DNA from: Bacillota bacterium
GTDB lineage: Bacteria > Bacillota_I > Bacilli_A > RF39 > UBA660
Assembly (NCBI GenBank): GCA_021771185.1
Contig: JAETPN010000002.1
Coordinates: 69,297 to 133,296, forward strand
DNA: 64,000 bases
Direction: 5' to 3'
In this document: piece by piece, positions 36,777 to 41,287 of the stretch
Layout of the letters: every line of letters begins with the position of its first letter
Position numbering within the stretch: position 1 is the stretch's first letter
Position numbers and translations under genes: made by a program
The notes under the pieces: model-generated
Databases searched by the model: none
What the model was told of the DNA's origin: nothing
The model's input: only the letters and a program-made list of their open reading frames with translations

Positions 36777-36869
36777 AATATCATACTCCCTATTAATAAT
36801 ATACGACAAAACTTTCTGATTTCCTTTTTTTTCGTGAAAATTTTTTAATTTTTTATAAAAAAGGGTATG

Positions 36870-37427
36870 TTATTCCCCTTTCATTAAATCTTTAATGGTT
36901 TCATAAACCTCATGTGGGTGTTCCATATTACGAAGTAACATCACTTGACATGGTTTTGTATTTTTTTTCATTTTAATATGACCAATTCCAAAAAAATAGT
37001 CTAAAAAATTTTGATAAGCAACCATATGAATCACTTCTTCATAATATAATTCACCATTTAAACGTGGATAATAATCATTTTCATAAGAAATACGATCTTT
37101 ATAAAGCGTAAACGTTACCCCACGGTATAATTTTTCTAAATATAAAGTATTTACATAGGCAGTAAGAAAATACATTGGAAATAACATAAGTAAGAATAAC
37201 AATGGTAGATCTTGCCAGAGACATATCCCGTACCCACATAGCATAATAAGACCAAAATAAACAATATGTCCTATTAAATAATTTAACACTTCATACCAAC
37301 GATGGTAAAACGGATGAAGAACGATGGGTTGATCACTTATTTCATCATTCACGATTTGTTCACTTCCACACGTTGGACAAACCTTTTTCCCTTCTGGTAT
37401 TTCCGCATAACATTTTGGACAAAACAT
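36870..37427 (-). CDS. zinc-ribbon membrane protein
   Basis: CPKC..CPTC N-terminus then 3 TM. Confidence 0.4.
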   Translation of the reverse strand: MFCPKCYAEIPEGKKVCPTCGSEQIVNDEISDQPIVLHPFYHRWYEVLNYLIGHIVYFGLIMLCGYGICLWQDLPLLFLLMLFPMYFLTAYVNTLYLEKLYRGVTFTLYKDRISYENDYYPRLNGELYYEEVIHMVAYQNFLDYFFGIGHIKMKKNTKPCQVMLLRNMEHPHEVYETIKDLMKGE

Positions 37428-37512: not shown

Positions 37513-37847
37513 TCTATATAAAACGCCAAACATACAAGACGTTTAGCGGACACTAAACATAGTTATACCATGATAACCTACTTTTAATATATCCATATAT
37601 AAAAGAAAATATGCATCAAAAGATACTTTTACTTATCTCTTCATAAATAGTATATTCACAAATCCAAAATTCGTGTATAAAATTAGTGTTTTTCAGTTTT
37701 ACCCCAAAACTTAATTTTTTTCATATAAGTTATGTTACATAAAATGATTCATATAATCTTTTCTCAAGATTTACTGCTAACTTCGTGTAATAATTTTTCA
37801 ATCTCTATATATTTAATTTGTTTCTCCCTATTGAATAATTTTTGAAC

Positions 37848-38174
37848 TTAGGAATTATAAGTTCTAATCTTATAATTATTTTTATTTAGTTTAATTTCTA
37901 TACTCCCATTGATATCTGTTCGGTAAATATCACAATAAGGATCAAGAGTATCAATCACACTTTCTTTTGGATGTCCATACCTATTATTCTTACCAACTGA
38001 TATCAAGCAATTTTTAGACTTTATATTATCAATAAAAACTTTACTACTACTTGTATTAAATCCACGATGGCTTACTTTTAAGAAATCTATCTCACTTAAA
38101 TTGTATTCATCAAGAATATCTTTTTCTCTATCTCTTTCGGCATCTCCCGCATGATCGAAGTCTCCATGTGGTGA
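37848..38174 (-). pseudogene. orphan 3' fragment of a comEC paralogue (C-terminal metallo-beta-lactamase domain, ~108 codons, frame intact)
   Basis: translates to SPHGDFDHAGDAERDREKDILDEYNLSEIDFLKVSHRGFNTSSS..NNRYGHPKESVIDTLDPYCDIYRTDINGSIEIKLNKNNYKIRTYNS*, colinear with the last 108 aa of ComEC; ~90% nt identity over the terminal 140 nt with 39233-39372, decaying further upstream. Confidence 0.6.
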
Positions 38175-38393
38175 TTATCGTTTATGAACACGAATGGGTT
38201 CCATTTATTTACAAAGAAAAAAAAGATCGCTAAAAGCAATCTATCGATGTTTCATATTAGTTACAGAAGATAAGTCATGCGATAAATCAAATGCCATTGC
38301 TCTACTATTATTTTTTAATAAATGTTTAGGATCATATGATGGATTAAATACTATTTTTTATGTCTAAATATTCAAAATTCATAAAATCGATGC

Positions 38394-39221
38394 CTACGTA
38401 ATATTATTTTTTTTACAAATTATTATTCCTATGGTTTTATCTTGAGTTATTTTTTTTAAATTTGAATCAATGTAATTCATATATATTTGTATTTGTCCTA
38501 TATGCTCCTTTTTCAATTCTATTACCTTCAACTCTACAACCACATAACAATTAAATTCAATATTATATAAAAGTAAATCAATATAATTATAACTATCACC
38601 TATTTTGATTTTATATTCACTATCTATAAATGAAAAACCATTACCAAGTTCCTTCATAAATTCAGTTATATTTTCTAATATTAAGTGATGTAATACTTTT
38701 TCACTAACTATATCAATATTGTTCTTATTCTTAATTAAAATAGGATTAGGCACTAGATCTTTGATTTTCAATTCATCGTTTTTTAAAATTTTATTTTTAT
38801 ACTCAACAGGCAATCTTTTATATTCTTTATTTTTTATAATTGACTCCAATTCTCTTTTGCTTAACCCTTTAAATAATGATTGTGAAATATAGTAATTAAT
38901 TTCGTTACTATCATTTAATTTAAATAATAATCTACAATGAGATATAGTTAATTGTGCACCCAATGGGTGCACTTTTATAAACAAATATAATTTTCTTATA
39001 TCAAATAAGTACCTAATACTATACTTCTTATTTAATTCTATTGATAATCTAAAAGAATAATCTTTGATAACGCTTTCACCATATTTGCCACTTACTTCAT
39101 ATAATAATTTTCCAATTTCTACATACGCATTTAGTTTATTCCTCTCTATCGAACATTTTTTAGCTTTACTATATATTTGTTCATCTATTATTTTATTTTT
39201 TATCTCATCATAATAATTCAT
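38394..39221 (-). CDS. YhcG/DUF1016-family PDDEXK nuclease-fold protein
   Basis: N-terminal DUF1016_N pattern (YVEIGKLLYE..KYGESVI..LS..L..YS.RYLFDIRKLY.F..QLTISHCRLL), C-terminal D..VVVELK motif. Confidence 0.6.
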   Translation of the reverse strand: MNYYDEIKNKIIDEQIYSKAKKCSIERNKLNAYVEIGKLLYEVSGKYGESVIKDYSFRLSIELNKKYSIRYLFDIRKLYLFIKVHPLGAQLTISHCRLLFKLNDSNEINYYISQSLFKGLSKRELESIIKNKEYKRLPVEYKNKILKNDELKIKDLVPNPILIKNKNNIDIVSEKVLHHLILENITEFMKELGNGFSFIDSEYKIKIGDSYNYIDLLLYNIEFNCYVVVELKVIELKKEHIGQIQIYMNYIDSNLKKITQDKTIGIIICKKNNIT

Positions 39222-39232
39222 CTTCTCACTCC

Positions 39233-41287
39233 TTACGGATTATAAGCTCTAATCTTATAATTATTTTTATTTAGTTTAATTTCTATACTCCCATTAATAT
39301 CTGTCCGATAAATATCACAATAAGGATCAAGAGTATCAAGCACTCTCTCTTTTGGATGACCATATCTATTATTTTCACCTACAGATATAAGACAATGTTT
39401 CGGTTTTAATTGATGGATAAAATCCTCACTAGAAGATGTTTCAGATCCATGATGTCCTACTTTTAAAAAATCAATATCACTTAAATTGTATTCATTCATG
39501 ATATCCTTTTCCCGTTTTTTCCCCGCATCTCCCATAAATAAAAATTGATAATCATAATACTTGAAATATACAACATTTGAATTATCATTTTCATTATCAT
39601 ATTTTTTTGTATTTAAAAAATAAAGTGTCTGATGGTGAATTTTTAACTGTTCTACATCATGATCGTATGGAATATCCTTTTTATTTAATAAATCAATGAG
39701 TTCTAATTCTAAATCATTATTTTCTCCCGAATTAAATATCACTCTTTTAATCTTAATATTACTTATTAAACAACTAGCGTCACCCGCATGATCATAATCA
39801 CCATGGGTTAAAATGAGGGCATCTAACGAAGTAATCCCTTGACTCTTTAAATATGGAACAATTTCCCGAAAACATCGTTTATGATCAAGTGTTCCACCAG
39901 TATCAATTAAAATATTTCCTTTGTGATGTGCGAGTGAAATTAGTGTACTATCCCCCTGTCCTACATCTAAAGACACTACTTTTGTTTGATCATCTAAATA
40001 AGGTAAAAAAAGATGAAATAAAAACAAACTAGCTAAAATATAACAGTATCTTTTATTATTTCTTTGAATCCCTTCAAAACAAAGAAAAATCAAGATCAAA
40101 TATAGAACATAAACCACGATAGGTAGAGCCTTAAAAGTGATCATCCAAGAACCATATTTTCCCATAAACGTAAATATTTTTTCTAAACCATAAAGACAAA
40201 TACTAAAGATAGGTTCTAACAGAGGAAAGAGAAAACTTAAGATACATAATGGAAAGATGAACACTTGAAATAGTGATGATAATAAGATATTAAAAACAAT
40301 CGAACATAAATTAAATTCAAAAGAAGTTGCAAGTGTGATTGGAATGCTTGCAATACCTGCGACCATAGAAACTCTAAACACTGAATGTTTTTGCTTTATA
40401 AAATTTTTAAAAGAAAGAAGAAAAAAAGAAACAACAAAACTATATAAAAAACTGGTTGAATAAATGATAAAAGGATTGATTAATAAAAAGAAGCAACACA
40501 AATAAACAAAAAGTTGAAGCGAGGTATATTTTAAATGATAGTTCTTATTAATCACATTTAACAAAAGAAAAAAGAAAGCTCGTAAAAGCGATGGACTTTG
40601 AAGCGTGAATAAAACATAACACATTAAAATAAAAAGTAAAATAAAGTATTTCTTTTTTTCTGATAGTTTAAAGGAAGATAAAAGATTCATCAGAAACACA
40701 CTAAAAATAGATAGATGCATTCCAGATAAAGCAAATAAATGACTAATCCCTAACTTTCTTATATTATGTTTATAAGAATCATCTAAATCACTTTGATCAC
40801 CCAAAAGGAACGTTTTATAATAAGCTTTCTCTTTTCTTGTTTCTATATAATGATATAATCTATTTTTTATAAGATCAAGAAAGCAATCAGAATGTTTGAT
40901 AACTTCAATTGTTCTTGCTTCCATCATCCAATAGACTTTCTTGCTCTTTAAATAATTTCGATAATTAAAAAGATGATTCATTCGATTTCGACGAGGACGT
41001 TTTAATTCTCCAGTAATAGATATCGTATCTCCAATTTTTAAATCTACACTTTGATAAACAAAAACCTGAATTTTTTCTTTTGCTTTGACCTCTAAAGTAG
41101 AATATTTTTCTTGATGTTTTATAGTCCTTACAACACCTATGATCTCATGATCATCCTCTGTATAAATTGTTCTTAATCCTATTTGATTACGAATAAAAGT
41201 AACCCAAAGTACAAAAAGAAAAAAACAAAAAATAAAATAGTTAGAGTGTAATATGCTCTTTAATTTTTGAAAATAAACTTTCACCAA
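39233..41287 (-). CDS. comEC: DNA internalization competence protein ComEC/Rec2
   Basis: polytopic competence domain + C-terminal metallo-beta-lactamase (HxHxDH as LTHGDYDHAG); 5' end overlaps comEA so true start may be downstream. Confidence 0.85.
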   Translation of the reverse strand: MVKVYFQKLKSILHSNYFIFCFFLFVLWVTFIRNQIGLRTIYTEDDHEIIGVVRTIKHQEKYSTLEVKAKEKIQVFVYQSVDLKIGDTISITGELKRPRRNRMNHLFNYRNYLKSKKVYWMMEARTIEVIKHSDCFLDLIKNRLYHYIETRKEKAYYKTFLLGDQSDLDDSYKHNIRKLGISHLFALSGMHLSIFSVFLMNLLSSFKLSEKKKYFILLFILMCYVLFTLQSPSLLRAFFFLLLNVINKNYHLKYTSLQLFVYLCCFFLLINPFIIYSTSFLYSFVVSFFLLSFKNFIKQKHSVFRVSMVAGIASIPITLATSFEFNLCSIVFNILLSSLFQVFIFPLCILSFLFPLLEPIFSICLYGLEKIFTFMGKYGSWMITFKALPIVVYVLYLILIFLCFEGIQRNNKRYCYILASLFLFHLFLPYLDDQTKVVSLDVGQGDSTLISLAHHKGNILIDTGGTLDHKRCFREIVPYLKSQGITSLDALILTHGDYDHAGDASCLISNIKIKRVIFNSGENNDLELELIDLLNKKDIPYDHDVEQLKIHHQTLYFLNTKKYDNENDNSNVVYFKYYDYQFLFMGDAGKKREKDIMNEYNLSDIDFLKVGHHGSETSSSEDFIHQLKPKHCLISVGENNRYGHPKERVLDTLDPYCDIYRTDINGSIEIKLNKNNYKIRAYNP

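Follow-up and report, generated by a model that had tools for sequence, protein, structure and literature searches.

Stacked units of comEC termini and candidate defence genes at a histidine codon of comEC in gut Bacilli

A displaced comEC terminus and its partner gene

We describe the competence gene comEC and the DNA behind it in a stretch of 64,000 nucleotides (nt; 29% G+C) from a Bacillota bacterium (GenBank assembly GCA_021771185.1, contig JAETPN010000002.1, positions 69,297 to 133,296), which is hereafter called the window. The gene order on the minus strand is comEA, comEC, the nuclease gene yhcG, a non-coding stretch, a gene for a Zn-ribbon membrane protein (36870-37427), dnaG and rpoD. 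The non-coding stretch harbours a second, displaced comEC terminus. An earlier note on this DNA had interpreted the repeat of about 330 nt as the trace of an element that inserts at the comEC 3' end and carries a replacement terminus, so that comEC stays intact. The same architecture recurs in many lineages, in agreement with an element that inserts in comEC and restores it, and the repeat is real. However, insertion occurs at the histidine (His) codon of the HGDYDH motif, 573 nt before the stop codon, rather than at the 3' end, and the repeated unit is larger than proposed, as it begins at this codon and includes a relic of yhcG. The features of the locus, all on the minus strand, are as follows (CT, C-terminal module; ORF, open reading frame; aa, amino acids).

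41241-41858: comEA, the upstream operon partner of comEC, given as context
39233-41287: comEC, an intact 684-aa ORF with DUF4131, Competence and Lactamase_B domains
39233-39805: head CT, the final 190 comEC codons and the stop codon, from the HGDYDH His codon at 39805-39803
38394-39221: yhcG (DUF1016 PD-(D/E)XK nuclease), 275 aa, assigned by Pfam, alignments, PADLOC and a structural model
38224-38242: terminator-like hairpin with a T-run, the right end of the head cassette
38169-38200: junction motif, type 2 variant AACCCATTCGTGTTCATAAACGATAATCACCA, which abuts the orphan His codon directly
37848-38168: displaced orphan CT, in which HGDFDHAGDA is joined to ERDREKD...TYNS and a stop codon
37753-37835: relic of a second, older yhcG (approximately codons 23-52) with an in-frame stop
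37568-37598: tentative third, ancient comEC-CT relic (MDILKVGYHG, resembling IDFLKVGHHG), on weak evidence
37548-37524 and 37511-37494: two terminator-like hairpins that close the locus and are kept in the nearest relative, locus L040

The head CT appears, from comparison with the other loci described below, to be the part of comEC that cassettes supply. Its end and the orphan form a direct repeat of 300 nt (37847-38146 and 39232-39531; spacing 1385) with 81% identity. In an ungapped register, the two copies are 92.1% identical in the terminal 140 nt and 71.7% identical upstream of that, and their longest identical run spans 48 nt (37863-37910 = 39248-39295). The high identity of the terminal 140 nt fits gene conversion or crossover between the copies, the same process that is observed below in loci L019 and L043. 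Together with the comparative data, this supports the earlier view that the repeat is not a recent simple duplication.

What does the orphan still encode? The orphan frame reaches 38168 and opens with HGDFDHAGDA, equivalent to the metallo-beta-lactamase (MBL) motif codons at comEC 39805-39776, and then resumes at the equivalent of comEC 39531. Relative to head positions 39784-39532, 252 nt (84 codons) are deleted in frame, and two GG.GA.GC (GDA) microhomologies flank the deletion. The orphan thus seems to have formerly spanned all 190 terminal codons and to have lost 84 of them between the microhomologies. In addition, it lacks a start codon, and its GHHG motif is altered to SHRG. Both copies had been proposed to encode the C-terminal half of the MBL domain; the in-frame terminus is indeed present in the orphan, but because of the 84-codon deletion no intact half-domain is encoded.

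Immediately past the orphan stop codon, 37753-37835 is approximately 71-79% identical to yhcG codons ~23-52 (39067-39153) and contains an in-frame stop. This second yhcG is reduced to about 80 nt, its ribosome-binding site, ATG and first ~20 codons having been deleted. Since the relic directly follows the orphan, the repeated unit comprises a comEC terminus and yhcG, and the window contains a stack of two or more such units. Of these, the head unit (39805-38169) is almost whole and consists of the CT, a tail-truncated yhcG, the terminator and the type 2 motif, and the older unit (38168-37753) is decaying. Farther downstream, 37568-37598 shares 84% identity over 31 nt with the KVGHHG region of comEC. 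The block conserved in L040 starts at window position 37683, and the 31-nt piece is kept there. This segment may be a third, older comEC-CT relic, perhaps predating the split from L040. A palindromic terminator that had been placed after the orphan copy is found as the terminator-like site at 37511-37494, and the promoter-like site of the Zn-ribbon gene comes after the two closing hairpins.

The gene between the two termini is a single YhcG/DUF1016 ORF, as the earlier note had recognized. Membership was assigned on both domains exceeding the Pfam gathering cut-offs (PF06250 and PF17761: YhcG_C, 2.6e-33 and 115.5 bits, cut-off 32.5; DUF1016_N, 6.4e-15 and 55.9 bits, cut-off 32.8). The yhcG start codon lies 11 nt past the comEC stop codon and is preceded by a GGAG of its own, and yhcG is probably co-transcribed with comEA-comEC. 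The catalytic residues D215, E230 and K232 are present and are invariant across 25 homologues. The protein is 275 aa long, compared with 293-296 aa for full-length members of its clade. Its final ~18 residues are gone, and its C-terminal domain is incomplete, with the profile match ending at position 120 of 157. The sequence ..RFYEF followed by a stop codon at about 38372-38389 is probably an out-of-frame relic of the yhcG tail. YhcG matches the PADLOC candidate defence profiles PDC-S02 (E-value, 3e-49), and its structural model (pLDDT 70.6, moderate confidence) finds its best Protein Data Bank match in the nuclease domain of EndoMS/NucS. We regard yhcG as a candidate defence gene. DUF1016 proteins often ride in restriction-modification loci and mobile elements (PMC9881135, PMC4316617). 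Inside yhcG, a strong G+C-rich hairpin, GTGCACCCAATGGGTGCAC, is located on the opposite strand at 38954-38972 (+). This region encodes the conserved KVHPLGAQ segment of YhcG, an amino-acid segment that is kept in locus L028, and the hairpin is probably coincidental to the coding sequence.

Recurrence and exchange in gut Bacilli

Related loci were collected from metagenome-assembled genomes of uncultured gut "Bacilli"/"Tenericutes" and compared by tblastn and ORF maps. The 55 loci (L001-L055) are all distant from the window. In scans of genome and metagenome contigs, the best comEC identity is ~42% over the full-length protein; the window's species is represented by one genome on record plus a 1.35-kb Logan contig, and the next relative is at 48% identity. 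The layout of the window recurs in these loci as comEC, cargo, terminator, a ~29-nt motif and an orphan equivalent to window residues 491/495-684, often with further units behind it. The recurring units measure 1.1-2.3 kb and have the same ends in about 20 lineages. Of the lineages that were sampled through comEC, about one in three has an array, as listed below.

L005, L017/L018/L020/L024, L023 and L025: comEC and orphan unit(s)
L028: three termini
L034, L035-L037 and L038/L039: arrays
L043-L052: arrays of up to four termini in ten strains of a single human-gut species

Elsewhere, comEC stands alone (for example, in L002, where it is followed by a 121-aa ORF, dnaG and rpoD) or is accompanied by yhcG without an array (L003, L040 and L053). 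A second comEC-like match in L003 was considered as an orphan and rejected, since it belongs to an independent MBL gene whose 342-aa product is membrane-anchored. In the nearest relative, L040, comEC is followed by an intact yhcG, a yhcG relic, the same terminator block as in the window, the Zn-ribbon gene, dnaG and rpoD. The yhcG relic and the shared downstream block indicate that stacking predates or parallels the split between the window and L040. In L053-L055 (7001-8816) and L040 (10058-11366), comEC is directly followed by two tandem yhcG paralogues that no comEC terminus separates; both copies are intact in L053, and the second is a relic in L040. Such an arrangement suggests deletions that took the spacer, motif and orphan yet spared the next cargo.

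Other insertions are found in these loci. In the human-gut species of L043-L052, insertion sequences (DDE_Tnp_1_6, IS3/rve and UPF0236) lie inside or beside the arrays and vary between strains (for example, L045 8975-10363, L048 9833-10684 and L043 9217-10629). In L028, an ORF-less group II intron (3428-~4070; Rfam RF02001, 143 bits), with a GUGCG 5' end and visible domains V/VI, sits right after the cassette terminator and ~35 nt ahead of the junction motif. This position is typical of class C introns, which target terminators. When known RNA families were considered as part of the locus, this intron was set aside as an incidental insertion after the terminator, and none was found in the window region.

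Cargo genes begin 11-16 nt past the CT stop codon across the arrays. The first cargo gene is yhcG in about 12 of the ~14 array-bearing lineages. Other cargo comprises a DinD-like gene (L028 and L038), whose protein matches the PADLOC candidate PDC-S13, a Bro-N gene, a lipoprotein-like ORF (L025), a PLPC-like ORF (L043) and ORFs without assigned identity; orf189 and the other small cargo ORFs have no matches in Pfam or PADLOC. The frequency and fixed position of yhcG raise the possibility that YhcG is a free-standing homing-type nuclease that cuts the palindromic HGDYDH site of a cassette-free comEC, so that repair copies the CT and yhcG into it. A target within an active-site motif, a PD-(D/E)XK fold with intact catalytic residues and the frequent pseudogenization of displaced yhcG copies, as in the life cycle of homing genes, are in keeping with this model. 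However, the nuclease is not part of every mobile unit, as yhcG is missing from the L025 head unit, L028 unit 1 and L035-L037, and the upstream homology between species (50-60%) is too low for homing repair. These two observations make homing less likely. Furthermore, clean homing would replace rather than displace the old terminus, the core sequences of heads and orphans show no systematic 'immune' difference, and DUF1016 is, as cited above, a common passenger of restriction-modification and other mobile loci. We therefore consider homing by YhcG very unlikely.

The orphans themselves are numerous. A protein database search with one orphan returned 5,702 matches at E <= 1e-20, a number that includes full-length ComECs; among the 120 best matches, 84 are exactly 196 aa long, with N-termini of the form MHK[RHLC][MI]SP that are encoded by the motif. 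In annotation, an 'MBL fold' ORF of 196 aa or a truncated yhcG found behind comEC should be taken for a likely cassette relic. An open frame of 189 codons is kept in most orphans, and recombination with orphans yields chimeric functional heads, as in L019. These properties, along with the uniform length of the orphan matches, would suit silent spares that serve the host by swapping the outer half of the ComEC nuclease domain, similar to pilS cassettes or orphan toxin modules, with the cargo being incidental. In contrast to this expectation, the CT is the most conserved and not the most variable part of comEC between species, switching based on deletion would be irreversible, and no selective agent is known. 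Host-serving variation is the least probable of the explanations weighed here.

The arrays change within species and are shared between species. The earlier note had called for a comparison of related genomes, in which an arrangement without size polymorphism or mobile context would have argued for an ancient fixed rearrangement; instead, units vary in number within species, and one cassette crosses species boundaries. L018, L020, L024 and L017 carry a 2180-nt unit, starting from the His codon, that is absent in the conspecific L019. The single unit of L019 is a chimera, A-type until about +250 nt and B-type beyond, which identifies the size difference as a deletion that arose when head and orphan crossed over. 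Likewise, orphan 2 of L043 is a chimera of two L050 orphans with a crossover at about +450 nt, and L034 displays yet another arrangement. Between species, L018, L023 and L005 share cassette A (CT, yhcG, orf189, terminator and motif) at ~95% identity, scored at 95-100% across the three species, but the flanks are at most 78% identical or unalignable. Identity among the three species is 96-100% in the 300 nt before the junction and 53-72% in the first 100 nt after it, where the orphan adjoining cassette A is of a different, unrelated type in each species. That of L023 contains insertions and deletions (indels) and shares only 43-48% identity with other CTs, as a native terminus would if a first invasion had displaced it.

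The left boundary of the exchanged DNA is also visible within comEC. Between species, nucleotide identity at the His codon jumps from ~50-60% to 83-90%, and at conserved residues the share of identical codons climbs from 45-51% before this codon to 69-79% behind it. These increases indicate that species draw the terminal third of comEC from a common pool by exchange. As a separate observation at the protein level, species whose ComEC proteins share ~30% identity in the N-terminal 430 residues can reach up to 94% in the C-terminal 190 (for example, L002 compared with L008). Such a chimeric history of ComEC would mislead comEC-based phylogenies.

The junction and the route of insertion

All orphans in the related loci begin at the His codon of HGD(Y/F)DH. 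Approximately 19 distinct junctions yield the consensus AAT.CgTaTGCATAAac..at.TCACCA/CATGGaGA, in which the slash marks the joint. The ~29-nt motif is 86-90% conserved across cassettes with unrelated cargo and lies ~25 nt downstream of the terminator-like hairpin and T-run, a T-rich layout that other cassettes share. The type 2 variant of the window (...CGTGTTCATAAACGATAATCACCA), together with the upstream TTTTTCTTTGTAAATAAA, matches the junction at position 7574 of L043, which belongs to an unrelated species. The junction forms an inverted repeat, TCACCA-CA-TGG(T/A)GA, around a central CA dinucleotide. In addition, RNAalifold pairs (T/C)C(G/A)TATG with CATATGG when the motif is taken with the CT start, and 92% of cells are paired.

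Two functions of the motif were considered and rejected. The motif is not the translated N-terminus of a 196-aa protein, since several copies contain in-frame stops (ATGCATAAATGATAG... and CGATAATCACCA) and no Shine-Dalgarno sequence is present; the stops indicate that the motif is conserved at the DNA level rather than as a translated leader. It is not a sigma-70 promoter, as no consistent -35/-10 elements were found and a scan performed no better than shuffled sequences. A third, a conserved hairpin formed with the CT start, is backed by pairing potential but not by covariation.

The position of the junction coincides with a known phage target. As the earlier note had stated, comEC is a known site of mobile-element insertion, exemplified by prophages of the Phi1207.3/Phi10394.4 type and the 'comEC' prophages of Streptococcus suis. 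In the S. pyogenes phage phi29961, a member of the Phi1207.3/Phi10394.4 family, the core of attB, as annotated, overlaps the His codon homologous to that of the cassettes (THTDTDH compared with THGDYDH), and two serine recombinase genes adjoin the comEC junction; the S. suis 'phi-Ssu_comEC' phages are placed likewise. The crossover of Phi1207.3 occurs at a GA dinucleotide in comEC (PMC4260502). The cassettes and these prophages thus target the same gene (comEC/celB), with the attB core and the GA crossover within ~7 nt of the His codon, and the cassette junction resembles the Phi1207.3-type attachment site in both its position in comEC and an imperfect dyad around a central dinucleotide. The prophages differ in that they are 50-60 kb long, encode two or three serine recombinases of their own and split comEC without providing a replacement end, whereas the cassettes are 1.1-2.3 kb long, lack a recombinase, restore comEC and are stacked in arrays.

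The presence of serine recombinases beside the same junction in streptococcal prophages, together with the visible decay of the window units, could suggest that the window holds the remnant of a larger integrase-bearing island or prophage in comEC. In such a relic, which would resemble a cis-mobilizable element (CIME), the integrase would have been lost. The earlier note had left the choice between a decayed island and a small cassette type. However, units of 1.1-2.3 kb with identical ends recur in about 20 lineages, none of them with phage or recombinase genes, and the known comEC prophages bring no replacement terminus. The small cassette type is upheld by this recurrence and by the shared cassette; a decayed island with a lost integrase, of which neither the window nor the 55 loci retain a recombinase, is highly improbable.

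Other mobile systems share single features with the cassettes. Elements such as e14 and phage 21 in icd, and islands that target tRNA or tmRNA genes, provide a substitute gene end and leave the old end as a downstream pseudo-copy. The cassettes are similar in that the target stays functional and direct repeats duplicate its distal part. These elements encode an integrase and duplicate tens to ~165 nt, whereas the cassettes have no integrase and duplicate 570 nt, half of an enzyme domain. Staphylococcal SCCmec and psi-SCC arrays at rlmH and streptococcal CIMEs accrete in tandem at one site of a conserved gene, as the cassettes do, and many of their units lack recombinase genes and rely on one provided in trans. 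In SCCmec and CIMEs, unlike in the cassettes, the direct repeats are short and lie at the very 3' end, and the Ccr or integrase partners are known. Integron cassettes are likewise small, mostly single-gene units that are added at the head of an array by a fixed platform, carry adaptive or defence cargo and end in a conserved site with inverted-repeat character. The comEC arrays differ from integrons in having no intI and in that their repeat is a protein-coding segment; no attC consensus was seen, and the junction motif has pairing potential with the CT start but no covariation in support of a folded site. In the window and in the gene tables of the related loci, no intI or attI was found beside the arrays, and the upstream genes are comEA and housekeeping genes. 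Orphan CT/immunity modules (cdiA-CT/cdiI and rhs) also feature displaced C-terminal fragments that start from a conserved motif, a small partner gene and chimeras. In contrast to polymorphic toxins, ComEC is not a toxin, its CT is conserved and not hypervariable, and its partner is a nuclease-fold defence candidate. The cassette system differs from each known kind in at least one defining feature, and comEC cassettes of this type were not found described in the literature.

We propose that the window contains a stack of small, recombinase-less cassettes that enter comEC at the His codon by site-specific insertion in trans and are then reshuffled homologously, a reading that we hold to be about evenly balanced between right and wrong. 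Each cassette would consist of a replacement CT of 190 codons, cargo, a terminator and a ~29-nt motif ending in ...TCACCA. The incoming CT would fuse in frame to the resident comEC, and the former CT and its cargo would be shifted downstream as a silent orphan. The first entry into a new comEC would occur by site-specific recombination over a short core at the His codon, with the recombinase provided in trans, most likely by a phage or other element that targets comEC and encodes a large serine recombinase, by analogy with Phi1207.3. The arrays would later be reshuffled and passed on through homologous recombination, probably following natural transformation. Three observations make the first insertion look site-specific: one cassette stops at an identical base next to each of three unrelated termini, the recipient offers no homology left of the joint, and the joint is covered by a conserved motif that is dyad-symmetric about a central CA. 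For the later steps, the crossovers at +70 to +450 nt inside the CT repeats and the gradient in synonymous identity clearly point to homologous remodelling and to homology in much of the exchange. Since the hosts encode comEA, comEC and pilus genes, transformation probably aids the reshuffling.

Several results weigh against this proposal. No recombinase gene was detected in the arrays, the window or L001-L055 by tblastn with Phi1207.3-type serine recombinases or in the gene tables. The Phage_integrase and Resolvase families are absent from all array gene tables; insertion-sequence transposases are present in or beside some L043-type arrays. IMG/VR scans with YhcG, the orphan, the CT alignment and a DNA pattern of the junction recovered no relevant free or phage-borne form. 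The element-side arm of the streptococcal phages, TTGTATCAAATTGAGTAC, was tried as a homologue of the cassette motif and rejected, as the two could not be aligned in register. In the junction alignment, the inverted repeat between the motif and the HGDYDHMG codons is not accompanied by compensatory changes. The synonymous identity rises as a gradient (57, 69, 71 and 79%) and not as a clean step, and the within-species indels examined are all plain homologous crossovers, none of them a precise excision. Recent exchanges have their left boundary within the CT, roughly +70 nt in L018/L023 and +160 nt in L005, a position that points to homologous exchange. With a single genome of the window species in the databases, no empty/occupied pair is available for that species. 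Lastly, the head and orphan CTs of the window are mutually closest (76% identity in amino acids, with L040 next at 70% and 64%), so that the second unit could result from unequal crossing-over within the lineage.

A rival explanation is a purely homologous spread, similar to the 'minimal mobile elements' of Neisseria. In that model, the junction would have arisen once, in ancient times, and the two flanking CT repeats would act as portable homology for RecA after transformation, so that cassettes would move with no part played by a site-specific enzyme. It accommodates the crossovers inside the CT in every within-species change seen, the start of recent exchanges at +70 to +160 nt into the head CT, the synonymous gradient, the lack of a recombinase and the DNA-uptake genes of the hosts. 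However, it does not readily explain how one cassette, without usable homology on the left in the recipient, comes to join orphans of three unrelated types precisely at the His codon, and it leaves the 86-90% conservation of the non-coding ~29-nt motif unexplained. Purely homologous spread is a serious rival, although on this evidence we judge it unlikely.

We tentatively suggest, as a possibility on the doubtful side, that the arrays form an integron-like platform without a recombinase, in which a coding repeat of 190 codons and a ~29-nt site move defence genes among uncultured gut Bacilli and always rebuild comEC. A hijacked phage serine recombinase may recognise the junction in trans, or the junction may be recognised during transformation while folded as single-stranded DNA. 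If such a platform exists, a mobile element preserves, and probably depends on, the natural competence of its host. Mobile elements are known to break competence genes; the comEC cassette repairs the gene that it enters. It is a compact (1-2 kb) and apparently very common vehicle in gut Bacilli for candidate defence genes, including YhcG/PDC-S02, DinD-like/PDC-S13 and Bro-N, and its exchange would account for the C-terminal third of ComEC being far more alike between species than the rest. The conserved motif, the codon-level target and the natural presence/absence variants provide a testable system, which could reveal either a new trans-acting recombination activity or a coding repeat that suffices as portable homology in transformation-driven gene flow.

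Neighbouring sequences

Two further features of the window lie outside the stacked units. The first is the sequence AGGAAAT-N12-TCGTATA, which occurs exactly twice in the window, with 0 occurrences expected by chance, at 36800-36825 (-) and 41880-41905 (-), just upstream of dnaG and comEA. Both sites sit within a 42-nt repeat (36790-36831 and 41870-41911), and L040 also has the sequence before both dnaG and comEA. We take it to resemble a promoter of the sigma-H/ComX family, presuming the Bacillus subtilis sigma-H consensus; if it is one, comEA-comEC-yhcG would be under competence-type control. The second feature is a pair of ORFs upstream of comEA on the minus strand, 42259-43050 and 43208-44833 (263 and 541 aa), which consist of tandem ~35-aa repeats (...SLNSPHHREDMELIANAKTDKIA...) and have near-identical C-terminal ends.

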